This document shows, one piece after another, positions 3,624-41,785 of a DNA stretch of 44,526 nucleotides. Origin of the DNA: Escherichia phage vB_EcoP-101117UKE2. The notes under the pieces are model-generated. The model had not been told where the DNA came from, did no database searches, and worked only from the letters and a program-made list of their open reading frames with translations. The number at the start of each line of letters is the position of its first letter. Position 1 is the stretch's first letter. Both the position numbers and the translations under genes were made by a program. The DNA is taken from sequence record MZ234019.1; one strand, given 5' to 3'.

Positions 3624-3653
3624 GGCCATTCCTTCGGGAGTGGCCTTTTCTTT
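3624..3653 (+). terminator. intrinsic terminator after RNAP gene (early terminator analogue)
   Basis: 9-bp stem GGCCATTCC/GGAGTGGCC with one G-U, TTCG loop, followed by TTTTCTTT. Confidence 0.6.
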
Positions 3654-21667: not shown

Positions 21668-22408
21668 ATGCCTTTAATTCAAAATACAAGTGATGTTGGA
21701 CGTATCATGGCTGAGGCTTCCTTCAATATCATTGATAGCAAACTGGAAGCAGTTAACCTGTGTATGCGAGCTATCGGTCGTGAGGGTGTGGATTCCCTTG
21801 ACTCTGGCGACTTAGATGCTGAAGATGCTAATAAGATTATTGATATTGTCTCACAACGTTTCCAGTACAATAAAGGTGGTGGTTGGTGGTTTAACAGGGA
21901 ACCTAATTGGCTGCTTAAACCTGATACCAACGGCGAAGTGAATATGCCAAACAATTGCCTTGCGGTACTCCAGTGTTACGCCCTAGGTGAACGTAAAGTA
22001 CCTATGACTATACGAGCAGGCAAGTTGTATTCTGTTTGGAATCACACTTTCGACATGTCAAAGTATGTGAATCAGGATGGGCGTATTAGGTTGACTCTGG
22101 TAACATTACTACCTTTTGAGCATCTACCTGCAAGTGTTATGCAAGCTATTGCCTATCAAGCTGCCGTAGAGTTTATTGTGTCTAAGGGTGCTGATAAGAC
22201 TAAGTTACAAGCACACCAGCAGATCGCAGCACAGCTTATGATTGATGTTCAGTCAGAGCAGTCTTCTCAGAAGAGACTCAATATGCTTGTACATAACCCT
22301 ACTCAGCGCAACTTCGGAATCATGGCAGGTGGCTCACAGAATGTACCAGCATTCTCCTATTCCCCTTATGATACTTACCCTGTAAGGCCGTGGGAGGTTG
22401 ATCGCTGA
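21668..22408 (+). CDS. tail tubular protein A (gp11-like)
   Basis: Synteny; N-terminal pattern resembles T7 gp11. Confidence 0.85.
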   Translation: MPLIQNTSDVGRIMAEASFNIIDSKLEAVNLCMRAIGREGVDSLDSGDLDAEDANKIIDIVSQRFQYNKGGGWWFNREPNWLLKPDTNGEVNMPNNCLAVLQCYALGERKVPMTIRAGKLYSVWNHTFDMSKYVNQDGRIRLTLVTLLPFEHLPASVMQAIAYQAAVEFIVSKGADKTKLQAHQQIAAQLMIDVQSEQSSQKRLNMLVHNPTQRNFGIMAGGSQNVPAFSYSPYDTYPVRPWEVDR

Positions 22409-24813
22409 TGGAAGTGCAAGGCTCATTAGGTCGTCAGATTCAAGGTATTAGCCAACAACCAGCAGCAGTGCGGTTAGATGGGCAATGTACCGATATGGTT
22501 AATATGGTTCCAGATGTAGTCAACGGTACACAATCTCGCATGGGGAGTGTGCACATTGCAAAGCTACTGGACTCCGGCAGTGACAATATGGCAACACATC
22601 ACTATCGAAGAGGCGATGGTGATGAGGAATACTTCTTTGTTTTAAAGAAAGGTAGTTTGCCGGAAATCTTTGACAAGCAAGGCCGTAGGTGTAATGTGAC
22701 AACAAGGGATGCTCCTTTAGATTATCTAAAAGAAGTAGTAAATCCACGAGAAGATGTACAGTTTATGACTATTGCAGATGTCACATTTATGCTGAATAGG
22801 AGAAAGGTCGTAAAGACAAGGTCTGCACGGTCGCCTAAGATCGGTAACACTGCCTTAGTTTTTAGTGCCTATGGTCAGTATGGGACTACATATCGTATAA
22901 AGATTAACAACGTTACAGCGGCAGAGTACAGAACTGCAAATGGTGGAGAGGCTAGTGACATTAGTACAATCAGAACCGAAAGGATAGCAAGGGAGTTGTA
23001 TGAGAAACTGCTCGCTTGGGAAGGTGCTGCCGATTATAAATTCAGTCGTGATGAGAATGTCATAACCATTAGTACTGTGGACGGTTCTACTGATTTTACT
23101 GTATCTACTAATGATGGTGCGAAAGGGCAAGACTTAGTTGCAATTAAATATAAGGTAACGTCTACTGACCTCCTACCTTCTAGAGCACCCGCTGGTTACA
23201 AAGTTCAAGTCTGGCCTACAGGAAGTAAACCAGAGTCCAGATATTGGCTAGAAGCAGAGAAGAAAGAAGGCAGCTTGGTTACTTGGAAAGAAACCATTGC
23301 AGCAGATGTCCTTCTAGGTTTTGATAAAGCCACAATGCCTTACCTTATAGAGCGCACAGATATTATAGATGGGATAGCGCAGTTCACTATAAGGCAGGGA
23401 GATTGGGAAGACCGCAAGGTTGGTGATGACCTCACTAACCCCATGCCGTCCTTCATTGATAAAGAGAACCCACAAACTATAGGCGGCATGTTTATGGTAC
23501 AGAATAGGCTCTGTGTAACAGCAGGAGAGGCTGTCATAGCTACTAGGACTTCTGCGTTCTTTGACTTCTTTCGCTACTCAGCAGTGGCTAGCGTTGCTAC
23601 TGACCCGTTTGATGTGTTCTCAGATGCAAGTGAAGTCTATCAGCTAAAACATGCAGTTACTCTGGATGGTGCTACGGTCTTATTTGCTAACAGGTCGCAG
23701 TTTACAATCCCTGGAGATAAAGTACTGGAGAAGTCAAACATCGTATTACAACCAGCGACCACCTTCGAAGTTGACAACAGGGTTCCTCCTGCGGCAACGG
23801 GTGAGTCTGTGATGTTTGCTACTAGTGAGGGTGCTTACTCTGGTATCCGTGAGTTTTACACAGATTCATATAGCGATACGAAGAAGGCACAGGCTATTAC
23901 TAGTCATGTGAATAAGTTGATACAAGGTAACATCACTCACATGGTTGCCAGTACCAATATTAACAGGCTACTCGTGATTACAGACAAAGACCCCAATATC
24001 GTCTATTGTTATGATTGGTTGTGGCAAGGGACAGACCGTGTACAATCCGCATGGCATAAGTGGGTGTGGCCTAAAAATACTCTGATACGATCTATGTTCT
24101 ACTCTTCGGAGGCTTTGTATCTTCTAGTAGAAAGAGGCAATACGGGTGTCTACTTAGAGGTGATGGATATGGGGGATGCCCTCACATACGGATTGGTTGA
24201 TAGGATAAGATTAGATAGGCAGGCAGAGCTTATCTTTACTTATGACTCTTACAACTCCCAGTGGGTATCAAATCCTTTACCTTGGATACCAACAGACCCT
24301 ACATTGCTAGATTGTGTACTGACCACAGGGTGGCCTGCTTATATTGGTGGGGCTTTTGGTTTCGAATATGATGCAGGTAGCAACACACTACGGACTACAT
24401 TTGATTTAGCTGATGAGCAATCTAACGCTATCGTAGTGGTCGGACAGTTGTATCAACAGGAGTTTGAACCTACGCAAGTGGTTATCAGGGATAATCAAGA
24501 TAGAGTCTCCTATATAGATGTACCTGTGGTTGGGTTAGTGCACCTTAATCTGGATAAATACCCTGACTTTGAAGTGCACATTAAGAATTTGAAAAGTGGA
24601 AAGGTGCGAAAAGCACTAGCCTCTAATCGCAAAGGTGGTGCACTGAATAACATCGTGGGATATGTTAAACCTGAAGAGGGTTCTTTTAAGTTCCCCCTTA
24701 GGTCGCTAAGTACCGACACGGTTTATAGGATAGTTGTCAAATCACCTCACACTTTTCAACTAAGAGATATTGAGTGGGAGGGTTCGTATAACCCAACTAA
24801 GAGGAGGGTATAA
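22408..24813 (+). CDS. tail tubular protein B (gp12-like, 801 aa)
   Basis: N-terminal GISQQP motif as in T7 gp12; size and synteny. Confidence 0.9.
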   Translation: MEVQGSLGRQIQGISQQPAAVRLDGQCTDMVNMVPDVVNGTQSRMGSVHIAKLLDSGSDNMATHHYRRGDGDEEYFFVLKKGSLPEIFDKQGRRCNVTTRDAPLDYLKEVVNPREDVQFMTIADVTFMLNRRKVVKTRSARSPKIGNTALVFSAYGQYGTTYRIKINNVTAAEYRTANGGEASDISTIRTERIARELYEKLLAWEGAADYKFSRDENVITISTVDGSTDFTVSTNDGAKGQDLVAIKYKVTSTDLLPSRAPAGYKVQVWPTGSKPESRYWLEAEKKEGSLVTWKETIAADVLLGFDKATMPYLIERTDIIDGIAQFTIRQGDWEDRKVGDDLTNPMPSFIDKENPQTIGGMFMVQNRLCVTAGEAVIATRTSAFFDFFRYSAVASVATDPFDVFSDASEVYQLKHAVTLDGATVLFANRSQFTIPGDKVLEKSNIVLQPATTFEVDNRVPPAATGESVMFATSEGAYSGIREFYTDSYSDTKKAQAITSHVNKLIQGNITHMVASTNINRLLVITDKDPNIVYCYDWLWQGTDRVQSAWHKWVWPKNTLIRSMFYSSEALYLLVERGNTGVYLEVMDMGDALTYGLVDRIRLDRQAELIFTYDSYNSQWVSNPLPWIPTDPTLLDCVLTTGWPAYIGGAFGFEYDAGSNTLRTTFDLADEQSNAIVVVGQLYQQEFEPTQVVIRDNQDRVSYIDVPVVGLVHLNLDKYPDFEVHIKNLKSGKVRKALASNRKGGALNNIVGYVKPEEGSFKFPLRSLSTDTVYRIVVKSPHTFQLRDIEWEGSYNPTKRRV

Positions 24814-25538
24814 TGGCGATAATGGCGACAGTAGGGTCAAGCCTAGCCAGCATGTTCTCCAGTAGTGCAGGTGCTGCGGCTGCTAGTAGTGCTGCTGGTA
24901 GTGCCGCCGCTGGAAGTGGTGGTGTACTTGGCTCTATCGGAAGTTTCTTAGGTGGAAGCTCTGCTGGCTTTTCTAATGCAGGTTTGTTGTCTGCTGGACT
25001 ACAAGGCTTAAACTTACTAGGCGGTCTATTCGGTGGACGAGATACCGCTAAGGCTATGCAGAAAGCACAAGAAGAAGAATGGAGACAAAGGCTAGAAGCC
25101 ACACGTGAAGCCTATTCTTCTGTGGCAGATGCAGAGCGGGCTGCTGCAAAGCAATATCATTCTGACTTCCTTAGTAATCAAATTTCACTGATGCAGCAAC
25201 GAGCGCAAGTTGCAGTAATGGCAGGCGCCACTGGAACAGGTGGTAGCTCCATCACATCCATGCTCAATGATTTGACGGCAGAAGGCGGTCGCAATCAGTC
25301 AACCATTATAGATAATTATGAGAATCAGCAAATCAACTTTGCCAACCAGTTGAAGTCTATTCAACGCAGTGGACAGATGCAGATGCGAACGTTTGACAAA
25401 CCTTCCGCTTTGGGTACTTTGGTGAAAGGAATACCAAGCATTGCATCTTCCTATGTCACCGGAAGTAAAGCAGGTATGGCACTTGGCAAGGCTATCACTG
25501 AGTCTCGTACTTATTCATCAGGAACTAGAGGAGTTTAA
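24813..25538 (+). CDS. internal virion protein (gp14-like), Gly/Ala/Ser-rich
   Basis: Synteny; low-complexity N-terminus. Confidence 0.7.
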   Translation: MAIMATVGSSLASMFSSSAGAAAASSAAGSAAAGSGGVLGSIGSFLGGSSAGFSNAGLLSAGLQGLNLLGGLFGGRDTAKAMQKAQEEEWRQRLEATREAYSSVADAERAAAKQYHSDFLSNQISLMQQRAQVAVMAGATGTGGSSITSMLNDLTAEGGRNQSTIIDNYENQQINFANQLKSIQRSGQMQMRTFDKPSALGTLVKGIPSIASSYVTGSKAGMALGKAITESRTYSSGTRGV

Positions 25539-28481
25539 ATGGCAATTGAACGTCAAGCTGTACAAGGACTAGAAAGAGTACAGTCAAGGGGCGCGCCAAC
25601 ACCTATGTCTTTCACACCACGACAAGTGAGTATCTCAGGGGGCGCGGATGCCTCCGGTAGTAGATTTTTGGAAGACTTAGTAAACGCTGCAAGTAGTGTG
25701 GCTGATGTCACTACTGCTATCCTTAATCAGCAAGTAGAAGACGATAAGGTTCGCCAGATGGATAGGGCTTTGTCTGGCATGATGCCTTCTGAGGATGCTA
25801 CGGTAGGTGGTGCTCGTGCGCATATGCTGGTTAGTTTACAAAATGATGTAATCGCACAGACAACTGCGCTACAAGTAGAAGCACAGCGATTTCAAGGTAG
25901 TGACGAGGATTGGGAAAACTATGTAGTCCAATCTCGTAATGAGGTACAAAATAGGTTATGGCAAAGTTATCCAGAGCTTCGTGGTGACAAAGATTCTATG
26001 AGACTTGTCACTAACGCGTTCATGGAGCAGCAACCTAGAATTACTGCAACTAGAGCAGAGGCTAAACTTCGTCAAGAAGAAGAAGCACGAATGCAATCTA
26101 TGCAGTCTCGTATTATCATGGCTACACGGGACGTAGCGCCAGATGCCACTGGTGCAGCACTCATCCAGTTACAAAAAGAAGCACTGGCGATGGGTCTTAG
26201 TAAACCTGAGTTTGATCAGATGGTTGCTAAGATTGCATCTGACAGAGCGGCAGTAGGAGACGATAGTCTTATTCAGGGAACCAAAGCACTGGTGGATGAT
26301 AAGGGTGTCTCTTTGTATGACCGTGTTGGTGCTTTGCAAACTGGAGAGATTCAAGCTAACAGAGCTTGGGCTGCGCAGAATCAGGTTGCCCTCTTTGAGA
26401 AGAAGGATGCAGCTATAAAGGCATTCGATGCAGGGCAACTTACTCGTGAAGAGTTACTTCAGGTGATGCAGAATCACAATGAATTGACTGGTGGTACTGC
26501 TTGGTCTGATAGCGAGATCAAGGCTATCTTCGATAGGCAAGCTAAGGCTAATGCAGAGAAAGCAAAGCTCGAAGATCTTATTGCACGAGGTGAATCTGGG
26601 TCGCCTTTAGGTTTACAGGATATTAGTAAGGATGACAGAAAATCATATGCTGAAGCCTTAGTTAGTACCTACACTAAGTTGGCAGAAGATGAAATTGCCC
26701 GTACTGGTGCAACTGGAGAACAGGCTGAAGCTATTCGCGGTAGGTATGAGCAGATGCGTTATCTTAAGTTAGGGCAGCAACTTATTGAAGACCCAATCAT
26801 TAAGGAAAGATATTCGTCGCTTATGCAATTATCCTCTGCCAACCTTAAAGATATGAATGTTGAGCCTGAAGCATTACAGACCATCATGCGAGCGCGGGAC
26901 TCTATTCCAGAGGATGCACGTCGTGCTGTCATGGGAGACAAGGAGTATGCCTTTGTAGAGAACTACGACCTAGCAACTCGCATGGGGTATAACGCAGGTC
27001 AAGCTATTGAGTTTGCACAGAATGCCTCTCGTGGAGAGAAACTACAAGGTTCTGTACTTAAAGAACTGAATGATGATGTAGATGGAGTTGTAAGTGATGT
27101 GGCAGGAGGTAGTTGGCTTACTCATGGCGATAATATGAGTGAGATGGGTCGTGACATTATGATGGAGGAGGCAAGTACAATTGCGAGAGCAATGAAGGTT
27201 GCAGGTCATAATAATGACACGATTAAACGTCATCTTAAATCCTATTTGACGAGCCAGTATACACAGTTATCAGAGGGCTTCTTCACCCAAGGTGTTCTGG
27301 TGAAAGGTGATGTACGAACATTAGGTGACACTATAGGAGTAAACCAGAATGACCTTCCTATGGCGCTACGTCAATATATGGATAACAACAAGAAAGCACT
27401 TCTTGATGCATCAGGTGGCTTAGAAGAGGGTGATTTGTATTTTGATGTAGATGCGCAGCGGGGACTCTTTACCATACGTGCAGGGTCTGGTCGTGTACCT
27501 GTTACGCAGGCAATGCCTTTGTCTGAAATCAAAGGGCAGTCCTTGCTTAAGCAAAGATATGATGCAGAGGTTAAAGCCCGTGATGAGGGGCGTAAGAATT
27601 TTGAAGCACAGCAAATGAGGATGTGGGGCGCAGGTGGCTACCAAGCACAACCGCCTGCAAAGACTACAGCCAAAACTGTAGGCTCCCGTGGGATTGCTGA
27701 CTTCTTAATGTCACCTGCCTTTGCATCAGGCGAGAATCTACCAGCAAACTTTGAGTTTGGATATAAGAGGAATAATATGGACTTCTACAATTATGTAGCC
27801 AAGATGGAGAATAATGCCAATGTGGGCTTTGACCGAGTAGCTGGTGTTTATACACCATACAAAGATGCACATGGTCAATCTGTCGGGTACGGTCACTTCC
27901 TTACTACTGAAGAGAAGAAGAACGGATACATTATGATTGGTACAGAGAAAGTGCCATTCACTCCGGGACAATCTCAATTAACACCAGAACGAGCCATGCG
28001 CCTTCTACAGCAAGACTTGAAGAGTCATGTGCCAAACACTTCAGGGTGGGCTGTTCCATTCGAAGAGATGCACCCAGGTGTTCAGCGTGGCCTTATGGAC
28101 TTGTCCTATAATTTAGGCAAAGGAGGTATCCAGAATGCACCTAAAGCCTATGCTGCGTTTAAGGCTGGCAAGTTTACTGATGGATTTATTGAGATGTTAT
28201 CTACTGCATCTACTGAAGGTAAGCGTAGTACTGGGTTGTTGGTTCGTAGGGCAGAAGCATACAACCTTGCACAGAGTGGAGGTGCTATTCCTAAGATTAG
28301 TGAAGTAGAGACACGAGCCGATGGGTCTATGTATGTTAAGTTTGCAGGACAGATGTCAGAGGCTTTCGTAAATAAATCAATCTACAATCAGATTGGTAAG
28401 GATGGATGGCTGCAAGTGTACCCTCCAAAACAAGGTGTACTTGCACCTAACACCAAGATTGGTAGAATCAAACTAAGCTAG
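25539..28481 (+). CDS. internal virion protein with C-terminal GH24 lysozyme-like domain (980 aa)
   Basis: C-terminal VYTPYKDAHGQSVGYGH...LTPERAMRLLQQDL...YNLGKGG matches T4/P22 lysozyme signature. Confidence 0.85.
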   Translation: MAIERQAVQGLERVQSRGAPTPMSFTPRQVSISGGADASGSRFLEDLVNAASSVADVTTAILNQQVEDDKVRQMDRALSGMMPSEDATVGGARAHMLVSLQNDVIAQTTALQVEAQRFQGSDEDWENYVVQSRNEVQNRLWQSYPELRGDKDSMRLVTNAFMEQQPRITATRAEAKLRQEEEARMQSMQSRIIMATRDVAPDATGAALIQLQKEALAMGLSKPEFDQMVAKIASDRAAVGDDSLIQGTKALVDDKGVSLYDRVGALQTGEIQANRAWAAQNQVALFEKKDAAIKAFDAGQLTREELLQVMQNHNELTGGTAWSDSEIKAIFDRQAKANAEKAKLEDLIARGESGSPLGLQDISKDDRKSYAEALVSTYTKLAEDEIARTGATGEQAEAIRGRYEQMRYLKLGQQLIEDPIIKERYSSLMQLSSANLKDMNVEPEALQTIMRARDSIPEDARRAVMGDKEYAFVENYDLATRMGYNAGQAIEFAQNASRGEKLQGSVLKELNDDVDGVVSDVAGGSWLTHGDNMSEMGRDIMMEEASTIARAMKVAGHNNDTIKRHLKSYLTSQYTQLSEGFFTQGVLVKGDVRTLGDTIGVNQNDLPMALRQYMDNNKKALLDASGGLEEGDLYFDVDAQRGLFTIRAGSGRVPVTQAMPLSEIKGQSLLKQRYDAEVKARDEGRKNFEAQQMRMWGAGGYQAQPPAKTTAKTVGSRGIADFLMSPAFASGENLPANFEFGYKRNNMDFYNYVAKMENNANVGFDRVAGVYTPYKDAHGQSVGYGHFLTTEEKKNGYIMIGTEKVPFTPGQSQLTPERAMRLLQQDLKSHVPNTSGWAVPFEEMHPGVQRGLMDLSYNLGKGGIQNAPKAYAAFKAGKFTDGFIEMLSTASTEGKRSTGLLVRRAEAYNLAQSGGAIPKISEVETRADGSMYVKFAGQMSEAFVNKSIYNQIGKDGWLQVYPPKQGVLAPNTKIGRIKLS
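27320..27342 (+). promoter_or_regulatory. promoter-like site CATTAGGTGACACTATAGGAGTA inside internal virion protein gene
   Basis: AGGTGACACTATAG matches classical SP6 consensus better than this genome's own consensus. Confidence 0.3.
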
Positions 28482-28498
28482 TGGTATACTCAAGGTTT

Positions 28499-28514
28499 GT
28501 CTCACATGTGAGAC
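28499..28514. repeat. 16-bp perfect palindrome GTCTCACATGTGAGAC (copy 6)
   Basis: Exact copy in the junction between internal virion protein genes. Confidence 0.9.
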
Positions 28515-28548
28515 ATGCCTTTATGAATGACACTGACTAGGAGGTAAC

Positions 28549-31500
28549 ATGGTTGATAGTATTAACCAAAACTGGGTGGCGGTGACTCAACGCAAGTTAC
28601 CGCCTACCTTCTCTCAAATTGCTGAAGCTGAGCGTAAGGCTGAAGCCCAGAGAGCTAATGATAAAGTGTTTCAAACAGCAATAGAAAGTGAGTGGGCTTT
28701 ATATGGCGGACAACGTGCCTATGAACGCCACACTACAGAGTTTGCTGAACAAGAAGGCTATGAAGTGCCTGAGTCAACTAAGGATGAGTTATCCAAGTTG
28801 TATGGGTATGAAATAGCGCAAGACATAGTTAAGAATGTAAAGTCTCCAGAAGAGTTGCAATTCCGTATGTCTAATGCTGCTGCTGATAAAGACAGAGCAG
28901 ACATCTTAGCACGTAATGGTTTCACGGGTTTCAGCGCGCAGATTGCTGCTGGCATCCTTGACCCTGTAGGTTGGGCTGCATCCTTAGTGGCTGCGCCTGT
29001 AGCGGGTGCTGTCAAAGTAGGTAGGCTAGGTAGGATTATCAAGACGGCTGCCTTATCAGGTGCTGAAAATGCTGCATTAGAAGCTATACTTGCACAAGGT
29101 GATTACCAGCGAGGGGTTGATGATGTACTGGCTGCTGCCGGATTTGGTATGATTATGGGCGGCACTATTGGTGCTGCAACCAGAGAGCGCATAGCCAGTG
29201 CTGGTTCTCGTACAGCGGCAGAACGAGCAGATGCTGTAGTTGATGACTTGGACACTGTAGTAAAAGGTGCTGATGAATTTGACTCGTCTGCGGCTCGTGC
29301 TGTACGTGAAGCTATGGAATATGACGCGTATATGGCAGCGCGTAATTACGAACCACTTCGTGCAAGAGAGGTAGATGCAGACATGGCGATTCTGTCTCAC
29401 ACAGATAATTTGAAAGCCAATGCATCGGTAAGGATGAGTGCTAGTGAGAAAGGGCAACTGAAGAAGCAGATACGTCAGCTTGAAGCAGAAGCAGCAACAC
29501 TTAAAGGGAAGAAGATAGACACTGTAGCGGAAGCTGCGGCTGCTAAGGGTGCACCTAAATCTGCTGCTGACAGATTAGATTTGGATGTTCAGAAGAAAGC
29601 ATTAGCACGTAGATTTGATGAACCACTGGCAGACTTACAAGCGCGTCTTGATGAGTTGAATGCTAAATTGTCTCGTGTAAACAATGTAGGCAAAGCCAAG
29701 GAAGAGCTTAAGAGATTCTCATCGCTATCTCGTGAAGAGCAAATAAAGGAGTTAGGTCTAGACGCACCAGTGCGCAAGGTAGAGATGACCCGTGCCGTGC
29801 GAGATGCAATTGACGCAATCCGTGCCGAGCGTAAGAAGACGCCTACCGAAATACATGCTGAACAAGTCGCAGAAGATGCAATTAAGCAAAGGGCAGACGA
29901 CTCTGTTGGTGCTAAACGTGTTGAAGGTTCAGAGATTGCAGGTGAACAGTTTGACCTATCTAAAAACATGGAAGAACTTATGGATGACTTGGCACGAGAA
30001 GCATACCAGTCAGAGGTGCGGCCTATTAATCTTAAGGGTTTAGGTTCAGTGTCTTCTGTGATTCTTAACTCAGAGAATCCTGTGTTCCGAGGCCTAGGTC
30101 TTCGTCTGCTTGAAAATGCTCAAGGTGGTGCATATCAAGGTAAGACAGCTTCTATCTTATCAGATGTGTATGGCAACCTTATTCGTCATGCAGAACGTAA
30201 CAGATACAATGATGGCTTCTCTCAGTTCATCAAAGATAATAACCTACGTGCGGTAGATTATCTTAACCCTGCAACGACAAGGGATTTCAATAATCAGATT
30301 TATACAGCAATTGTTCGTGGCATACCAGAAGATACACCTCGTGGTGTTAAACTGGCAGCCGAAGGTATTGCAGATAAGCTCAAGAAAGCACTGGAGATTC
30401 GTAAGCAAGCAGGTGAGCGAGGCTTCGAGGATGTGCAATCTGCTAAAGATTATATTCCCGTTATCTACGATGGTATCAAGATCACAGAGGCAGTTAACAA
30501 GTTAGGTAGTAGTGAAGCTGTCATTCACTTGCTATCTAAAGGGTATCAGACAGGCAAGTACAAACTTGGCAAGAAAGCTGCTGATGCACTAGCCAAAGTT
30601 CAGTATATTCGCGCATCTGACTCCACCCTCTCTAGTCGTGTTGCATTCGATAGAGTAGTATCCCAGCAGCAGCAGGCTCAATTGATTGAGGATCTGAAGA
30701 AAGCAGGAGTACCAGACCATATCATTGATAATTTCATTGAAGGTACGGAATTAGCAGAAATGGCTGAATCGGTATCCAATCGAGCTAAAGCTAGCATGGG
30801 TATTAATACGCAAGCCGAATATGGCGGTTTGAAGGTGCAGGATTTGCTTAATACAAACGTAGGCGAGCTAGCTGAGAACTACGGCAAAGAGGCAGCAGGC
30901 GGTGCTGCATTAGCTGCCATGGGTTTCCCCACTCGCCAGTCTGTGCTGAATGCGATAGATGCCGCAGAACGCGCAGGTCGTAATATGGCGGGGTCAAATG
31001 CTAAGGCAATCAAACAGCTTAGAGCTGAGGCAGAAATGCTCAGAGATGCCGTTAAGCTCATTTACGGCAACACTATTGACGCCGACCCTAACTCTGGAAT
31101 TGTCAGAGGCACTCGACGTGTCCGTGAGATTACAGGCTTGTTACGATTGGGTCAAATGGGCTTCGCTCAGATACCAGAACTGGCACGTGCAATCTCTAAG
31201 ATGGGATTAGGTACTGTGCTGAAGTCCATACCTGCCACGAAGTTCTTACGTTCAAGGGCGGCTCGTAAGGGAGGAACAGCTCAAGGTGAATTACTTGAAC
31301 CTGAACTGCGAGAAATGGAGGAACTCTTAGGCTATATCGGGGAAGATAACTGGCTTACAGGGTGGAACGTCCGTCATGATGAGTTCGGAGAAACTGCTGA
31401 TAACCTAGGTAAGCTGTCTGCTATTATTGATAACGGATTAGCTATGGGTAGTAGAATCAACACAATACTCTCTGGATTTAAAGCAGTACAAGGTGGTTCA

Positions 31501-32352
31501 GAGAAAATTGTAGCTCGCTCTATCAATAAGAGATTAAAGCAGCACTTGATGGGTGAGAGACAATTACCTAAAGCAGACCTTGAAGAAGTAGGCCTAAGTG
31601 AAGATGTCATGAAAAGACTTAAGCGTCACTTTGATGACAACCCTCTGTACGCTGAGTACAATGGAGAAAAAGTTCGTATGCTGAACTTTGATGCTATGGA
31701 GCCAGACCTGAGAGAGACAGTGGGTGTTGCTGTGCGAAGAATGTCAGGCCGTCTTATTCAACGTAACTTCATTGGCGATGAAGGTATCTGGATGAATAAA
31801 TGGTGGGGCAAGGCATTAACGCAGTTTAAGTCATTCTCTATTGTCTCTATTGAGAAACAGCTAATCCATGATTTACGAGGTGATAAGATTCAGGCTGCAC
31901 AGATACTTGCATGGTCTACTTTACTAGGTTATGCATCTTATGCACTACAGATGCAGATGCAAGCGATTGGTAGGGAGGATAGAGACAAGTTCTTGAGGGA
32001 TAAGTTTGACACACAGAACATCGCTATGGGTGTCTTTAATAAACTTCCACAAGTTGCAGGCTTTGGTTTAGCTGGTGATGCTTTGGCAACCTTTGGCCTA
32101 ATGCCAGACTCCATGATGCAAGCACCGGGACGCATGGGTTTCCGTCAGCAAGGCTTTGGGGATTTGGTAGCAGGTGCTGGTGTAATAAGTGATACAGTTA
32201 ATTTGTCACAAGCACTGGTTAAGTATGCCAGTGGAGACGATGATGTCTCTACGAGGCAGTTGGTAGACAAGGTTCGTCGCCTTGTTCCTTTGGCAAATAC
32301 TATTGGTGTGGGTCAGATGACTAAAGCCAGTGTAGATTTATTGGAGGATTGA
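28549..32352 (+). CDS. large internal virion (core) protein (gp16-like, 1267 aa)
   Basis: Size and synteny; AGGAGG RBS. Confidence 0.8.
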   Translation: MVDSINQNWVAVTQRKLPPTFSQIAEAERKAEAQRANDKVFQTAIESEWALYGGQRAYERHTTEFAEQEGYEVPESTKDELSKLYGYEIAQDIVKNVKSPEELQFRMSNAAADKDRADILARNGFTGFSAQIAAGILDPVGWAASLVAAPVAGAVKVGRLGRIIKTAALSGAENAALEAILAQGDYQRGVDDVLAAAGFGMIMGGTIGAATRERIASAGSRTAAERADAVVDDLDTVVKGADEFDSSAARAVREAMEYDAYMAARNYEPLRAREVDADMAILSHTDNLKANASVRMSASEKGQLKKQIRQLEAEAATLKGKKIDTVAEAAAAKGAPKSAADRLDLDVQKKALARRFDEPLADLQARLDELNAKLSRVNNVGKAKEELKRFSSLSREEQIKELGLDAPVRKVEMTRAVRDAIDAIRAERKKTPTEIHAEQVAEDAIKQRADDSVGAKRVEGSEIAGEQFDLSKNMEELMDDLAREAYQSEVRPINLKGLGSVSSVILNSENPVFRGLGLRLLENAQGGAYQGKTASILSDVYGNLIRHAERNRYNDGFSQFIKDNNLRAVDYLNPATTRDFNNQIYTAIVRGIPEDTPRGVKLAAEGIADKLKKALEIRKQAGERGFEDVQSAKDYIPVIYDGIKITEAVNKLGSSEAVIHLLSKGYQTGKYKLGKKAADALAKVQYIRASDSTLSSRVAFDRVVSQQQQAQLIEDLKKAGVPDHIIDNFIEGTELAEMAESVSNRAKASMGINTQAEYGGLKVQDLLNTNVGELAENYGKEAAGGAALAAMGFPTRQSVLNAIDAAERAGRNMAGSNAKAIKQLRAEAEMLRDAVKLIYGNTIDADPNSGIVRGTRRVREITGLLRLGQMGFAQIPELARAISKMGLGTVLKSIPATKFLRSRAARKGGTAQGELLEPELREMEELLGYIGEDNWLTGWNVRHDEFGETADNLGKLSAIIDNGLAMGSRINTILSGFKAVQGGSEKIVARSINKRLKQHLMGERQLPKADLEEVGLSEDVMKRLKRHFDDNPLYAEYNGEKVRMLNFDAMEPDLRETVGVAVRRMSGRLIQRNFIGDEGIWMNKWWGKALTQFKSFSIVSIEKQLIHDLRGDKIQAAQILAWSTLLGYASYALQMQMQAIGREDRDKFLRDKFDTQNIAMGVFNKLPQVAGFGLAGDALATFGLMPDSMMQAPGRMGFRQQGFGDLVAGAGVISDTVNLSQALVKYASGDDDVSTRQLVDKVRRLVPLANTIGVGQMTKASVDLLED

Positions 32353-35300
32353 TGAGTTATACATATACAGACCATGTAGCTAATGGCTCACAGGTTACAT
32401 TCCCTTTTCGTTTTGCAGGCAGAGATAAGGCATACATTAGTGCGACAGATGTCCAAGTGGGTTTTGTAGAAGCAGGCACTTGGCTGCCAGCAACAGGTTG
32501 GACGCTAAGTGGCACCAATCAGATCACTTTCTTAACCCCACCGACAGAAGGTAAACAAATACGAATCAGACGTATTGTAGATAAAATAAACCCATATGCT
32601 TACTTCGAGCGGGGTAATGTTTTAGATATTAACTCTTTAAATAACTCATTCATTAAGAACCTGCAAGTCAGTCAAGAAATCCTTGATGGCTTCTTCCCAG
32701 AAGGTTTCTACTTCAAGGCAGACTTAGACATGGGTGGTCATAAGATTATAAACCTACATGAGGGTTCTGAGTCAGGTGATGCTGTAAATTATGATCAGTT
32801 TAAAGAGTTATCAGACCGCGTTAATGAGATTGAATCAGATTTAACAGGTTTGTCTCACAGAACAGTACCTATGTACTATATCGCAACTGGTGGAGAGTCA
32901 CGTTGGGAGATCGGTCACTGGACTTTCGACGCTGCAATATTGTTTATTAATGGTGTATTCCAGAACCAAAACCTAGGGGCTTTCACCATCAGCAACAATG
33001 GTTTTAACTTTGCAGAACCATTGCAGAAAGGGGATGAAGTATATGCCCTTGTAGGCAGCCGCATTGCAGCACCCAATGAGTATGTAACAATCTCTGACTT
33101 GAAAGACCCTGATAAAGCGTGGAGGCTGATCGGACGCAAGTACCCTTTTGCGACAGATGGAACTTTTATGTCAAAGGTCGTACATGACGTAGACTACTCT
33201 AATCTCTTCACTGGAGCGACAGGTCTTAGTCAAGGCTTCTGTATCGTAGACACGCCGCAAGGTGCGCGCATGTTCTTCCACCAACCTATCCCAAGCACTA
33301 CTAAGGTTCGTTTCGTTGAAACAACCTTTAACCCTGAAGGGGACAATGAAAACCCTTCTGTTATTTCATTCAGTCAGGAACTGGATGATATTGGACACCA
33401 GACTGTGTGTGGTGTATATGAGGATGGGGCGGTGCGTTTATACACCTTAAGTGCAGATGAAAAATCTTATTATATCATAGATTGGCAAGGTAATAATACG
33501 TCTAATGTACATATGCGTAAGGTGCAGGTTCCTACGGAAGGTGTGTATTCTAAGGACTTATTTGTCTCAGTGGGTATGTCAGAAGATACTAAAACGCTGG
33601 TATTCCATGCAACCACCAATACTCAGGCTTTTGGTAACAAGGATGATGCGAGGGCTATTTACCTCTTCGATAGAAAAACATTGGATTCAACCTTAACTAG
33701 AGGTCTTAAGCGTAGATTCGAAGTAGGAGCACCTGCTGCACCAGATATGGCCTTCCAAGGGGTTGCTTGTGATGATTACTTCTTGTATATATATCATGGA
33801 TATAATGGTGTCCTGTTGTCTCACAAGATCTTCGTCTTCACCCTCTCAGGGGAGCATGTACGGGATATTCCCGTTGATAGTGTGCGTGTAAAATATGGAG
33901 AAAGGATGTATGGTGACGAGACTTTAGGGTATCCTGTATTGCAGGAACCGGAAGGTTTGGCAATGTATAAAGGCAAACTTTATATGTTGTGTATGGATTT
34001 CTGGTACAAGAATGCAAGTGTAGTTACTTTCGCTGGCAGGACTTTTGCTACAAGGAAATCTTCAGCGTTTTCTGGGTACAGCCCATTACAAGCATCATAT
34101 TGGACACCTACTAAACTAATACCACCCACGGGTGCACCTGATTATAGCAAGACAGCCACCTACTCCTGCTCTAATGCTACTAAGCTCAGTAAAGCTGTTG
34201 TCAGTTTAGAAATAGATGATGGCACAGGCTTCCCTGCAAGTATTGGGTGTTCATTGCCAGAGAGTAGCGCCAGTGTATACCTAAACAACCGAGCGATGAA
34301 TATGGCTATCGGGCCAAATGAAAACTTCCAGTTTGGGGTATTTCACCAGAACCTACAGTCATACAAAAACCTGTTACAGCTCAACAGAGAGAACCCAAAT
34401 ACGGATGGATCAGCGGCTGTGTGGAGGTTGTTCGGAGGTGCGTTCACAGATGACATTCAGAATGAAAGATTTGTTCAGATTAAGCATAGACTTAATCCCA
34501 CACAAGATGCCATGGAGCTTCGTGCGGATGTTGACCTTACGAGCGGTGGTGGGATTAACTTGTATTCTATGAACGACTCTGCCTCTCCTGGTCGAGTAAG
34601 GCTATATTGTACTGACGGGTATTCTTATTGGTCAGCTCTACTGAGTCCTGCATCCCCATCTTTTCACCCTGATCAAGATAAGACTCTAAACTTAGGTACA
34701 GCAAACAACCGTTGGAACCTAGTCCATTGTCAAGGTATCCGTATCATCTCTAACGACGAGTTACAGAAGCAAGTCTTTCTTGAAACTACCCGTAAAAAAG
34801 GTGCACTACAGATCTCCACTTCCGGCAATCTAGGGGTGTGGGATAGTAGCGCAGGTACTTATGTTGTGGCAACCAGACCTGATGGTACAGGCTTTTCACA
34901 GGTAGAGATGAGCTTCAAAGGTGATGTTTTTCCTGAAATAAATAATACTTACAATTTAGGTCGTGAGAATAAGGCATGGGCTAATGCCTACTTTCAAAAC
35001 GCACCGACTGTTGTCTGTGATGCCAGACTTAAAACAGATGCTAGGGAGTTAACAGCCGCAGAGAAATCCGCATTCTTAGAGATCTCTAAACTTCCGGCAG
35101 TTTGGCAATGGCTTGCTAAACTGGAAGTAGAAGGAGAGGATGCCCGCTTACACTCTGGATGTACTGTCCAAGCTGCTATCTCGGTTATGGAGAAACATGG
35201 CCTAGATTGGACTAAGTATAGTGCTTTCTGTTATGACAAATGGGATGCCAAGGAGGCTGTCTATGATATAGTGGATGGTAAGGCTATCCTTGTTGAAGAG

Positions 35301-35435
35301 GCAGTTGAGGCTGGCGACCGTTATCGTCTTCGTAGAGAAGAGCTGATGTGGTGGTGCATGAAGGCACAGAATGCTTGGATTGAATCTATTGAGGGGAGGC
35401 TGGCGAAATTAGAAGATAAACTCAAGGAGGTGTAA
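32352..35435 (+). CDS. tail fiber protein with C-terminal intramolecular-chaperone-like domain
   Basis: N-terminus resembles T7 gp17 attachment region; C-terminal CDARLK...HSGCTVQAAISVMEKHGL resembles S74-type chaperone domain; ATG 32352 overlaps upstream stop. Confidence 0.8.
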   Translation: MSYTYTDHVANGSQVTFPFRFAGRDKAYISATDVQVGFVEAGTWLPATGWTLSGTNQITFLTPPTEGKQIRIRRIVDKINPYAYFERGNVLDINSLNNSFIKNLQVSQEILDGFFPEGFYFKADLDMGGHKIINLHEGSESGDAVNYDQFKELSDRVNEIESDLTGLSHRTVPMYYIATGGESRWEIGHWTFDAAILFINGVFQNQNLGAFTISNNGFNFAEPLQKGDEVYALVGSRIAAPNEYVTISDLKDPDKAWRLIGRKYPFATDGTFMSKVVHDVDYSNLFTGATGLSQGFCIVDTPQGARMFFHQPIPSTTKVRFVETTFNPEGDNENPSVISFSQELDDIGHQTVCGVYEDGAVRLYTLSADEKSYYIIDWQGNNTSNVHMRKVQVPTEGVYSKDLFVSVGMSEDTKTLVFHATTNTQAFGNKDDARAIYLFDRKTLDSTLTRGLKRRFEVGAPAAPDMAFQGVACDDYFLYIYHGYNGVLLSHKIFVFTLSGEHVRDIPVDSVRVKYGERMYGDETLGYPVLQEPEGLAMYKGKLYMLCMDFWYKNASVVTFAGRTFATRKSSAFSGYSPLQASYWTPTKLIPPTGAPDYSKTATYSCSNATKLSKAVVSLEIDDGTGFPASIGCSLPESSASVYLNNRAMNMAIGPNENFQFGVFHQNLQSYKNLLQLNRENPNTDGSAAVWRLFGGAFTDDIQNERFVQIKHRLNPTQDAMELRADVDLTSGGGINLYSMNDSASPGRVRLYCTDGYSYWSALLSPASPSFHPDQDKTLNLGTANNRWNLVHCQGIRIISNDELQKQVFLETTRKKGALQISTSGNLGVWDSSAGTYVVATRPDGTGFSQVEMSFKGDVFPEINNTYNLGRENKAWANAYFQNAPTVVCDARLKTDARELTAAEKSAFLEISKLPAVWQWLAKLEVEGEDARLHSGCTVQAAISVMEKHGLDWTKYSAFCYDKWDAKEAVYDIVDGKAILVEEAVEAGDRYRLRREELMWWCMKAQNAWIESIEGRLAKLEDKLKEV

Positions 35436-37965: not shown

Positions 37966-38247
37966 ATGGCTAATGATTATAGTAATCAGCCCTTAACTGG
38001 TCGCTATGACCGTAAACAGATTACACCAACTAGTGAAGCGTTAATGCTCCCTGTTGTTACAGAGGAGTCTATTAAGAAGAAAGCCAATGTTATCAATGAT
38101 GCAACCAAATCTGGTAAACAGAAAGCAGCAATGGTGTGTCGTCCTGTAGGTGGCACTCTTGAGATTGCCATTGCTACTGGCAGCAAAGAGGATGCAGATT
38201 GGTTGTCTGTTAAAATGGATGGCGTTGGTCTTATTACACCGGCTTAA
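37966..38247 (+). CDS. hypothetical protein, tandem paralog 1 of 3 (93 aa)
   Basis: AAGGAG RBS; shared motif SGKQKAAMV...IAIATGSKEDADW. Confidence 0.65.
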   Translation: MANDYSNQPLTGRYDRKQITPTSEALMLPVVTEESIKKKANVINDATKSGKQKAAMVCRPVGGTLEIAIATGSKEDADWLSVKMDGVGLITPA

Positions 38248-38264
38248 TAAAAGGAGAAGATAAT

Positions 38265-38552
38265 ATGTCTAAGTATGGCGATGCAGGTACTACTACTGGT
38301 CAGGCTTTTCGTGTAAAAGCAGTACAAACTATTGCAACTGCAATCCCTATGCCTATCGTGGCAGAAGTTGACCTTAAAAAGAAAGATCATCCAATTAATA
38401 TTGAACACCTATCTGGTAAGCAGAAAGGTGCTATGGTGGTTGTAGATAAAGGAGATAATAGCCTTTATATTGCTATTGCACGTGGTTCTGCACCAACTGA
38501 CCAGTGGGATGTAACTACTATGGAAGCTGTACCTGTAACACCAGGAGCTTAA
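38265..38552 (+). CDS. hypothetical protein, tandem paralog 2 of 3 (95 aa)
   Basis: AAGGAG RBS; shared motif SGKQKGAMV...IAIARGSAPTDQW. Confidence 0.65.
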   Translation: MSKYGDAGTTTGQAFRVKAVQTIATAIPMPIVAEVDLKKKDHPINIEHLSGKQKGAMVVVDKGDNSLYIAIARGSAPTDQWDVTTMEAVPVTPGA

Positions 38553-38553
38553 T

Positions 38554-39243
38554 ATGCTGGGAGTAACAGGACAACGCAATAAGAATGTAGCCACCAAAGT
38601 AGTGGCTGATTTAGCTACTGCTGCTACTGTCGAGGGATTACGAGACACACATAGCTCTATTAACCGTGCTGACCTTTCTGGTAAACAAGAAGGTTCCGCT
38701 GTTATTGTTAAGAAAGAAGATGGGAATTATTCTATCTTTGTAGCAACAGGAAGCAAGCCGACTGATGTGTGGAAAGAGTTGTCTCCAACAATACCAGAGC
38801 AAGAGATGCCTGCTGAATATATTGATATGATTGATGTTCAAATTCATCAAGATTCTGCAAGCAACTTACGTATAGACTCTTCTCGCACTAGTTTAATACA
38901 AACACCAATGTGGGATACTGAAGGTGAGTTGTTATTCCGTAATACACTAAGTGCAACATGTTCTTGTACTATTCTTGTTGATGGTGCGTCTGGTGTTCGT
39001 CAGGATTTTACTTTTAAGATTAATGGACTTTTAGAGCAGGAAGAGCAGTATTATGATATTGACACACTTATGTGCTCTATTCACTCTGCAACAACAACTA
39101 ATGGCCTTACCTTGTGTATGCCAGATGCTAAAAGTGCAAAGACTAATAAAGTGGTAGTTAAGATCGACACTATGCAGTCATTAGCTATGAGCTTTGATCT
39201 TAACTTCCTTGTAGAATGGACGTCACCAACGAGGTTACTATAA
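38554..39243 (+). CDS. hypothetical protein, tandem paralog 3 of 3 with extra C-terminal domain (229 aa)
   Basis: AGGAG RBS; shared motif SGKQEGSAVIV...IFVATGSKPTDVW. Confidence 0.65.
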   Translation: MLGVTGQRNKNVATKVVADLATAATVEGLRDTHSSINRADLSGKQEGSAVIVKKEDGNYSIFVATGSKPTDVWKELSPTIPEQEMPAEYIDMIDVQIHQDSASNLRIDSSRTSLIQTPMWDTEGELLFRNTLSATCSCTILVDGASGVRQDFTFKINGLLEQEEQYYDIDTLMCSIHSATTTNGLTLCMPDAKSAKTNKVVVKIDTMQSLAMSFDLNFLVEWTSPTRLL

Positions 39244-40261: not shown

Positions 40262-41785
40262 ATGGCTAAACTAACGAGAGTCACTGACTGGCTTGTTAAG
40301 GTGAAGTCTAGACTCACTGGTGCAGTAGAGCGACTGCTTGAAGATAAGTTAAATGACACGGTTAGTGTTAAGGACTTCGGTGCTAAGGGTGACGGTGTGA
40401 CAGACGACACACAAGCATTTGCTGCCGCCTCAGCCGCATCGCCTCAAGGTGTTTATGTGCCTGACGGAACATATTTATTACCAGAAGATATTAATGGCAG
40501 GTTCTATGGTTCTGGTAAACGCATCAAGGCTGTAGGTGATGGTGGTATTCCTTTTACCAATGTAGCTCAGTCACATAGTAACCTAATATTAGGATATGAT
40601 GCTGCAAAGGATTACACGGACGAAGGGAAAGGCAACCAATTAGTATTACTTGGCCCAAGCTCCGGTCGTAACCTTACCACTGGTACTAACTCCATTGTGG
40701 TAGGTGTTGGTGGCCTATCGGGTGATACATTAGAAGATGCACTAACAGATAAATCACCTTTCACTGGTACAGAGATTATTAGCATTGGTATCAATGCTCT
40801 TAAGAAAACTACCACTGGCAACAACATGATTGGTATTGGTCGTGATGCCTTGAACGAGTGTAAAGATGGAAGATTTAACGTAGCTGTAGGTATGTCTGCT
40901 TTGCAGCAGCTACACTCTGGTGAGGCTAACGTAGCAATAGGGCGTTCAGCCGGTATGCGTACTGGCATCTTCACTAACGAAGAGGGTGTACGATTAGGCT
41001 ATACAAAATGTAGCGGTAATACCTTAATAGGTAACGCGGCTGGTCGTGAATTGAAGTCAGGTAATCATAACACCGCCGTAGGCAATGGTGCTATGCGAGG
41101 TGTCAGTTCTGATATTAATCCATATACTGGCACTCTAGAGGGTAATTTTAATACAGCTATTGGTGTTGATACATTAAACTCCTTAGCATCTGGTGAGTTG
41201 AACACCATGATTGGCGCAAGGGCTGGACGTAAATTACCTAGTGGCTCTGGTAACATCTTCATAGGTGCGGATGCAGGTGCAGGTATTAACGTTGAAAAGT
41301 CTAACACTCTCATTATTAACAACCACACTGGCTTACCTTTCGTAGAAGGTATTATGGGTGGTGCTCAGAGTGGGAATAACTACTTACGTGTTGATGGCAG
41401 TGTAGCACCTCAGATTGATAACACAAGAACTTGTGGTCAGTCTAGCCGTAGATGGCAGACTGTCTTTGCTACCAATGGTGTTATCCAGACATCGGATGGA
41501 CGATGCAAGGATGTCTACGATATTGCCAAGAAGGAGTACATGGCTGGTCTAGAGTTAGCCTCTAGTATGATTAAGTTCAAATGGACAGATACTGAAGAAG
41601 ATAAGTATCACTTCGGTTGTCTGGCACAAGAGGTCATGCTGATTATGGAGAAACATGGGTTAAACCCTCTGGATTATTCCCTCGTTACCTATGATGCTGA
41701 AGCAGATATGTATGGTGTTAACTATGCAGAATTGTCTTGCTTCTGTATCGCAGCAATGTCCAATCATGTACTAGGCAGTGCGTAA
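40262..41785 (+). CDS. tailspike with beta-helix depolymerase-like domain and C-terminal chaperone-like domain
   Basis: VKDFGAKGDGVTDDTQAF motif; repeated N-x-A-x-G units; C-terminal SDGRCKD...YHFGCLAQEV...EKHGL; ATG 40262 with AGGAG RBS. Confidence 0.85.
   Translation: MAKLTRVTDWLVKVKSRLTGAVERLLEDKLNDTVSVKDFGAKGDGVTDDTQAFAAASAASPQGVYVPDGTYLLPEDINGRFYGSGKRIKAVGDGGIPFTNVAQSHSNLILGYDAAKDYTDEGKGNQLVLLGPSSGRNLTTGTNSIVVGVGGLSGDTLEDALTDKSPFTGTEIISIGINALKKTTTGNNMIGIGRDALNECKDGRFNVAVGMSALQQLHSGEANVAIGRSAGMRTGIFTNEEGVRLGYTKCSGNTLIGNAAGRELKSGNHNTAVGNGAMRGVSSDINPYTGTLEGNFNTAIGVDTLNSLASGELNTMIGARAGRKLPSGSGNIFIGADAGAGINVEKSNTLIINNHTGLPFVEGIMGGAQSGNNYLRVDGSVAPQIDNTRTCGQSSRRWQTVFATNGVIQTSDGRCKDVYDIAKKEYMAGLELASSMIKFKWTDTEEDKYHFGCLAQEVMLIMEKHGLNPLDYSLVTYDAEADMYGVNYAELSCFCIAAMSNHVLGSA

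Follow-up and report, generated by a model that had tools for sequence, protein, structure and literature searches.

A natural cysteine at the nucleophile position of the S74-type intramolecular chaperone domain in a Vectrevirus tail fiber

Self-cleaving intramolecular chaperone domains of the S74 type are known from phages as well as from a eukaryotic transcription factor. The chaperone of T5 pb1 (residues 1263/4-1396) is released through a cut at Thr1263-Ser1264, for which Lys1269 activates Ser1264, while Arg1250 of the neighbouring chain, Asp1239 and Thr1263 form the oxyanion hole and sense the correct folding of the stalk (PMC4690869). The same mechanism has been proposed for endoNF (PMC4690869). 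MyRF is cut between P586 and S587, as established by mass spectrometry, with S587 and K592 at the active site and without the participation of a stalk residue (PMC8326128). Cleavage of MYRF is kept in the S587C mutant and abolished by S587A and by K592H, K592R or K592M (PMC3742440). The present analysis concerns the tail fiber gene of Escherichia phage vB_EcoP-101117UKE2, a Vectrevirus coliphage (Autographiviridae, Molineuxvirinae), whose genome is the 44,526-bp stretch of record MZ234019.1 analysed here in full (hereafter the window). The fiber ends in a domain of this type with Cys at the position of the nucleophilic Ser, and this domain appears to be a rare but recurrent natural variant of a known system rather than a new system, and is probably still active.

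The CDARLK motif of the fiber occupies residues 889-894 and is followed by HSGCTVQAAISVMEKHGLD. PF13884 (Peptidase_S74, 'chaperone of endosialidase') matches fiber residues 889-951 over positions 1-58 of its hidden Markov model (HMM) with E=1.1e-8 and 35.6 bits, the gathering cut-off being 22 bits; since the match starts at residue 889 and HMM position 1, Cys889 stands on HMM position 1. An earlier note on this DNA, made from the sequence alone, had suggested that the fiber ends in an S74-like chaperone, in which CDARLK places Cys at the nucleophile position. Both suggestions are borne out, the profile similarity to peptidase S74 being significant and the Lys partner of the nucleophile being retained. 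Fiber residues 816-1017 also align with the 4uw8 structure of T5 pb1 (S1264A mutant) at E=7e-23, with 'VVCDARLKTD' opposite 'NTADARLKND' and Cys889 opposite position 1264, which is Ser in the wild type and Ala in 4uw8; as judged from this alignment, the agreement of the motifs is far beyond chance. The domain comprises the last 139 of the 1027 residues of the fiber and lies behind 'xDNxxxLGxxxxxW' rungs which align with the T5 stalk.

An AlphaFold2 monomer model of fiber residues 817-1027 has predicted local distance difference test (pLDDT) values of 93-98 over the chaperone domain (means of 10-residue blocks). The top matches of the model in a Foldseek search of PDB are 4uw8 (E=3.9e-14) and 3gw6 of endoNF (8e-12), with 3gud of GA-1 (2e-8, TM score 0.81 normalised to the target, root-mean-square deviation 2.7 A) and 7dc3 of MyRF (2e-3) among the further matches. 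By homology and fold, the fiber chaperone domain belongs to the PF13884/ICA (CIMCD) family. With respect to the residues by which MEROPS defines S74, Lys is found five residues past the nucleophile (Lys894), the first residue of the domain predicted to be released is Cys889 where the strict definition demands Ser, and the Arg(-14) sensor, Asp(-25) and Thr(-1) are absent. The fiber is therefore a Cys variant and not a canonical member of S74, as it has neither the Ser nor the Arg sensor of endoNF and T5.

It is likely that the fiber domain is a functional Cys-Lys version of the autoprotease, which would cut the Val888-Cys889 bond and release a 16-kDa chaperone. In the mechanism proposed, the last 139 residues of the fiber would drive the beta-helical stalk to trimerise and fold, and would then detach themselves by cleavage. 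Once the trimer has folded, Lys894 would deprotonate the thiol of Cys889, and the resulting thiolate would attack the carbonyl of Val888 in an N-to-S acyl shift analogous to the reaction of the Ser type, in which the bond preceding the nucleophile is cut; the thioester would then be hydrolysed. The expected products are a mature fiber of ~98.8 kDa ending at Val888, which would stay on the virion, and a free chaperone of 16.0 kDa starting at Cys889. The acyl-shift chemistry is suggested by the position of the scissile bond. The occurrence of cleavage itself we infer from homology, predicted fold and the positions of Cys and Lys, together with the findings described below that Cys recurs in nature and is conserved and that phages carrying it are viable.

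The occurrence of Cys at the nucleophile position was examined in the relatives of the fiber domain. A phmmer search with fiber residues 860-1027 gave 5722 representatives at E<1e-3, with 150 of the 5722 among the matches listed. Column statistics were derived from phmmer and two profile searches; a word-index search with the fiber C-terminus gave just 16 homologues. In the 266 distinct alignable relatives of the fiber C-terminal domain, the nucleophile column holds Ser in 264 and Cys in two, namely the cluster of the query itself and P0064, an 807-residue beta-helix tailspike encoded on a 94-kb contig of a phage with multiple tailspikes. A 267th row of the alignment, with Asn, is a spurious match to an upstream stalk rung in P0017. 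Lys(+5) occurs without exception, in 267/267 aligned homologues and in 119/119 of the second profile search below.

The scan of IMG/VR with codon-specific DNA patterns for the context N-T-X-D-A-R-x-K-T, X being the nucleophile position, found at least 120 stretches with Ser TCN codons; as this count is a lower bound, no Ser:Cys ratio can be derived from such scans. Two of the five matches with Cys codons are genuine domains (L013 and L014), the other three being chance matches without an open frame. All other codons together gave a single genuine domain, L163 (IMGVR_UViG_3300028592_000825, match 898-923 on the minus strand), which passes the Pfam cut-off and reads 'TINTLDAREKT' with Leu at the nucleophile position, and may be a natural example of a chaperone without cleavage. 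Thr, Ala, Gly and Asn were absent from this position in the IMG/VR pattern scan, in which the scan for codons of the Ala/Gly/Pro type had lower sensitivity as it fixed the Arg codon as CGN. Scans of genomes and metagenomes, in which most matches with Cys codons are likewise chance matches without an open frame, added a Cys domain in a metagenome-assembled genome of Ruminococcus (L177) and the clade L182/L186/L189/L200/L204/L213. After the Cys, the classical S74 domains of this clade, L013 among them, share 75-93% identity; the identity of 59-63% obtained for L200 reflects an ungapped comparison of C-terminal domains of unequal length. In this clade (L013 and the six above), the same C-terminal cassette is joined to unrelated upstream sequences. 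In L013 (IMGVR_UViG_3300047554_000914, a 218-kb viral contig), the match lies at 3625-3650 on the minus strand, and the domain stands at the end of an open reading frame of at least 2180 residues.

A profile search seeded with this clade retrieved 119 classical S74 proteins, of which 110 have Ser and nine Cys, a set enriched for Cys as the query itself is of the Cys type. The nine form one family (P0304-P0316) of 149-161 residues, in which Cys and Lys are kept down to 44% identity. Members of P0304-P0316 consist of a short N-terminal segment and the S74 domain, all with Cys-x4-Lys, and several lie on contigs of 40-120 kb; P0305 represents 40 member sequences. All seven Cys variants submitted to a Pfam scan (L013, L014, L177, P0064, P0304, P0305 and P0316) score above the cut-off, and in each the Cys falls on HMM position 1. 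On these counts, Cys is a rare natural alternative of the order of 1% of the fiber domain type, and its distribution over the sequences indicates that it arose in at least six lineages, the fiber included, and is maintained within them. The recurrence of Cys, the unchanging Lys and the near absence of residues which are not nucleophiles suggest that a nucleophile is required at this position and that Cys is able to serve as one.

Alleles of the same fiber provide a further view of the Cys. The TGT codon is also present in Raoultella phage vB_Ro_P3a and the E. coli phages R4596, CC1 and CC2 (97-99% nucleotide identity over the gene), four further genomes deposited independently by differing laboratories and from differing hosts, and vB_EcoP-G3A1 is 100% identical across the fiber gene. 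Phages with the Cys allele have been plaque-isolated on both E. coli and Raoultella. The cluster of fibers at 90% identity has 24 members, and among the 15 distinct sequences listed, 11 have Cys and four Ser (P0017, P0276, P0281 and P0283). The Ser allele P0017, encoded on a 44.7-kb contig with the gene order of the window, is 95% identical to the fiber overall and has the Ser codon TCC in place of TGT. Comparison of the alleles (L008 6001-9084, a Logan SRR7164703 contig, with 32352-35435 of the window) shows that nucleotide identity between Ser and Cys alleles falls from 98-99.6% in the preceding ~500 nucleotides to 79-82% from gene nucleotide ~2571 (residue ~857) onward. A recombination breakpoint is placed near gene nucleotide 2571, the C-terminal cassette consisting of the last rung and the chaperone. 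The cassette of P0279 is of the Cys type but has Ile at position -2, as does the Ser allele. Over codons 860-1027, the Ser and Cys cassettes have 53 synonymous and 25 non-synonymous codon differences, which indicates that the chaperone domain has been under purifying selection between the two alleles. The two alleles thus represent alternative C-terminal cassettes swapped by recombination, and not a point mutation or an error. An origin of the Cys in an error of sequencing or assembly, or of the motif by chance, would be conceivable in that a single G/C change turns the Ser codon TCT into TGT, but the probability of such an artefact is practically negligible: the TGT codon is shared as described, 11 distinct protein sequences, drawn from many assemblies, have Cys, the TCC codon of the Ser allele is two changes away and lies in a cassette with ~20% nucleotide divergence, and the E-values of the domain reach down to 7e-23. 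Sequencing error as the source of Cys889 was consequently ruled out.

The principal alternative is that of an inactive, retained chaperone, as the earlier note had also considered, in which Cys889 is no nucleophile and the C-terminal domain aids folding but stays attached, leaving a full-length fiber of ~115 kDa on the virions. Several points speak for it and weigh against cleavage. Asp(-25), Arg(-14) and Thr(-1) (D1239, R1250 and T1263 in T5), which in endoNF and T5 form the oxyanion hole and sense the folding of the stalk, are absent from the fiber by alignment, their places being taken by N864(-25), A875(-14, adjacent to K874) and V888(-1) before C889 and K894. The natural Leu variant L163 suggests that non-cleaving domains can persist. 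No report of a natural Cys-type S74 domain or of its cleavage was found in the literature searched, and we know of no experiment on any phage member of the subclass without Asp and Arg. Two papers naming relatives of the phage, a decolonisation study and a genomic survey, show no sign of virion proteomics in title or abstract. The uncleaved S911A mutant of endoNF reportedly folds and stays active, and the viability of phages with the Cys allele is for this reason no proof of cleavage.

The absence of the helper residues is, however, shared by the nearest homologues with Ser (P0017, P0018, P0002 and P0003), and a decay of Asp, Arg and Thr linked to the Cys was rejected on this ground. The loss is not specific to the Cys allele, as it is a trait of a whole subclass which otherwise keeps Ser. 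Of the relatives of the fiber domain type, 209/261 have R(-14) and 210/256 have D(-25), with covariation of the two residues, and in the ~20-25% of relatives without Asp and Arg, Ser and Lys are invariant. This subclass may still cleave, given the invariance of its Ser and Lys and given that MyRF cleaves without stalk residues. Moreover, Lys894 is kept in the fiber, as in the whole family, and a dispensable nucleophile would be expected to be replaced by Ala, Gly, Asn or Thr about as often as by Cys, but Cys is the sole recurrent replacement. Cys is also conserved across 44% identity within one family, and the cleavage of MYRF S587C shows directly that Cys can serve as nucleophile in this domain family. 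The evidence thus favours a thiol-based variant over an inactive chaperone, which we regard as unlikely. Given the stronger nucleophilicity of thiols and their sensitivity to oxidation, the Cys could alternatively mark a kinetically or redox-distinct variant, which cleaves at another rate or only when reduced, with an altered timing of maturation under selection. The co-circulation of Cys and Ser alleles and the more frequent sampling of Cys would agree with this explanation, but assembly takes place in the reducing cytoplasm, and the allele frequencies are not attributable to residue 889 because whole cassettes differ; it is considered very unlikely. A bolder proposal, to which only a low probability is given, is that Cys-type S74 domains are a natural subclass of thiol autoproteases repeatedly derived from Ser forms, and that the Cys of the fiber confers a selectable property of maturation which would explain the commoner sampling of its cassette. 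Candidates for such a property would be a faster, thioester-based release or a release gated by redox state or oxidants, and if the proposal is true, the Ser and Cys alleles that co-circulate for one fiber would be a ready-made natural experiment. A structural role of the Cys in an inter-chain disulfide or a 'cysteine annulus', as in the P22 tailspike, was set aside in view of the cytoplasmic assembly, and because the Cys would leave with the chaperone if the fiber is cleaved.

If cleavage by the Cys-Lys dyad is confirmed, the fiber would become the first characterised natural member with a Cys nucleophile in a family classed as serine peptidases (S74), and the chemistry of the dyad would prove to be interchangeable between Ser and Cys in nature, as in inteins and Ntn-hydrolases. 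It would follow, too, that the folding-sensor Arg known from endoNF and T5 is dispensable. For those who annotate or engineer receptor-binding proteins, Cys at this position would not be a sign of a dead domain, and the mature end of the fiber would be Val888. The wider impact is limited, as the substitution is conservative, an engineered precedent exists in MYRF S587C and the fiber is unremarkable in the rest of its biology.

The second receptor-binding protein of the phage, a tailspike, serves as a comparison partner within the same genome (Table 1). Its SDGRCK motif (residues 411-416, from nucleotide 41492) is followed by HFGCLAQEVMLIMEKHGLN, and its active-site set is complete, with D386(-25), R397(-14), T410(-1), S411 and K416. 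The spike matches gp51 of Kp7 (7y5s, E=3.3e-19) in its N-terminal anchor and C-terminal domain, and 4uw8 of T5 pb1 with E=1.1e-8. The view that the spike, too, ends in an S74-like chaperone, here with the canonical motif, has therefore held up. PF13884 matches spike residues 411-467 with 21.7 bits (E=2.5e-4), slightly under the cut-off of 22, and an annotation based on thresholds would miss this domain despite its full set of canonical catalytic residues.

All large open reading frames of the window lie on the plus strand in an SP6/K1-5-like gene order, and the fiber gene is found downstream of the gene for a gp16-like internal virion protein and upstream of the holin and terminase genes. The fiber region is a 100% match to that of Escherichia phage vB_EcoP-101118B1 (MZ234020.1), in which the product is annotated as 'hypothetical protein'; relatives have it as 'tail fiber' or 'tail spike'. 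Profile matches of the fiber include phrog_19921 (tail spike, E=1e-279) and phrog_2710 (tail fiber, E=5e-87). At the N-terminus, PF03906 (Phage_T7_tail) matches residues 3-151 (E=1.4e-8) and the 'tail adaptor protein' 7y22_e of PDB matches residues 1-239 (E=1.6e-57). PF21311 (beta-propeller) has a sub-threshold match at residues 342-540. Close relatives vary almost wholly in the central and distal part of the fiber, with amino acid differences at residues 123-836. An internal stalk rung at 34668-34766 of the window (fiber residues 773-805), PDQDKTLNLGTANNRWNLVHCQGIRIISNDE, has the canonical D...LG....RW pattern found ahead of the cleavage site in T5 and endoNF; in the last rung, next to Cys889, the Asp and the Arg have been lost.

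Table 1. Coordinates of the tail fiber, the tailspike and their predicted parts in the window
Feature	Coordinates	Strand	Basis or remark
Tail fiber gene	32352..35435	+	ATG start, 1027 aa plus stop; in-frame TTG at 32349
N-terminal adaptor / T7-tail-fibre-type virion attachment domain, aa 1-239	32352..33068	+	PF03906, PDB 7y22_e
Central/distal receptor-binding part and beta-helical stalk, aa ~272-859	33165..34928	+	phrog_19921 (aa 272-972)
Final stalk rung, ahead of the predicted scissile bond, aa 860-888, FPEINNTYNLGRENKAWANAYFQNAPTVV	34929..35015	+	Alignment to 4uw8
Cys889 codon TGT, nucleophile position; predicted scissile bond Val888-Cys889	35016..35018	+	PF13884, 4uw8
Lys894 codon, position +5, predicted general base of the dyad	35031..35033	+	Column invariance in homologues
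S74/ICA intramolecular chaperone domain, aa 889-1027, 139 aa, 16.0 kDa, long C-terminal helix at its end	35016..35432	+	PF13884, 4uw8, AlphaFold, Foldseek
Tailspike of pectate-lyase fold, 507 aa, second receptor-binding protein, canonical S74 C-terminus	40262..41785	+	PF12708 E=1.7e-13, PF13884, 7y5s_A
Spike S74 domain, aa 411-507; Ser411 at 41492-41494, Lys416 at 41507-41509	41492..41782	+	

Two further observations concern other parts of the genome. The MZ234020.1 copy and the window are not collinear, with a 55-nucleotide shift upstream of record position ~30995 (22407-31050 of the window compared with 22352-30995 of MZ234020.1), which implies a direct duplication of 55 nucleotides within the gp16-like gene of the MZ234020.1 record. 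In that record the gp16-like gene is split into two overlapping coding sequences (28494..31004 and 30943..32352), whereas the window has a single intact reading frame of 1267 residues (28549-32352); the two sequences are of equal total length, and the window has 55 extra nucleotides somewhere upstream of 22352. At 37966-39243 of the window, three consecutive small open reading frames (93, 95 and 229 residues) are tandem paralogues with the common core 'SGKQ.(G/A)(A/S)(M/V)V...I(A/F).A(T/R)GS...W', two of them annotated only as 'ACLAME 971'.

Among the known systems, T5 pb1 is the best match of solved structure to the fiber C-terminus, with a near-identical motif (S/C-DARLK-T/N-D); the two domains also share the HxG..VQ...GLD core, a long hairpin and a coiled-coil helix at the C-terminus, and each terminates a trimeric fibre. 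T5 pb1 differs in having Ser1264 with Asp1239, Arg1250 and Thr1263, where the fiber has Cys889 with N864, A875 and V888. The endoNF of coliphage K1F (MEROPS S74, PDB 3gw6) resembles the fiber in its fold, in the +5 spacing of nucleophile and Lys and in its C-terminal role in the tailspike of a T7-like/SP6-like podophage. Its dyad is Ser911/Lys916 with Arg897 of a neighbouring chain, whereas the fiber has Cys and no equivalent Arg, and its sequence similarity to the fiber is weaker (phmmer E=3.6e-7). The ICA domain of MYRF/MrfA (7dc3) is homologous and has a Ser-Lys dyad without a stalk Arg, as is probable for the fiber, but belongs to a eukaryotic membrane-bound transcription factor distant from the fiber model (Foldseek E ~2e-3, 12% identity), and its Cys is engineered; within the S74/ICA family, a Cys nucleophile has been tested by experiment only in S587C. 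Klebsiella phage Kp7 resembles the window in both receptor-binding proteins, fiber residues 1-239 being similar to its adaptor (7y22) and the spike to its type I tail fibre gp51 (7y5s), and these matches point to a branched tail architecture of the Kp7 kind with two receptor-binding proteins. The adaptor of Kp7 is a separate protein of 328 residues, whereas in the window a distal fibre of ~790 residues with its own chaperone follows the adaptor domain in the same protein; gp51 also differs from the fiber in its canonical TSDARLK motif. In inteins, Hedgehog proteins and Ntn-hydrolases, in which Ser, Thr and Cys are interchangeable as nucleophiles, the side chain attacks the preceding peptide bond in an N-to-O or N-to-S acyl shift, and Cys and Ser versions occur within one family. 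Their likeness to the fiber is an analogy of chemistry only, as the folds and the catalytic helpers are unrelated.

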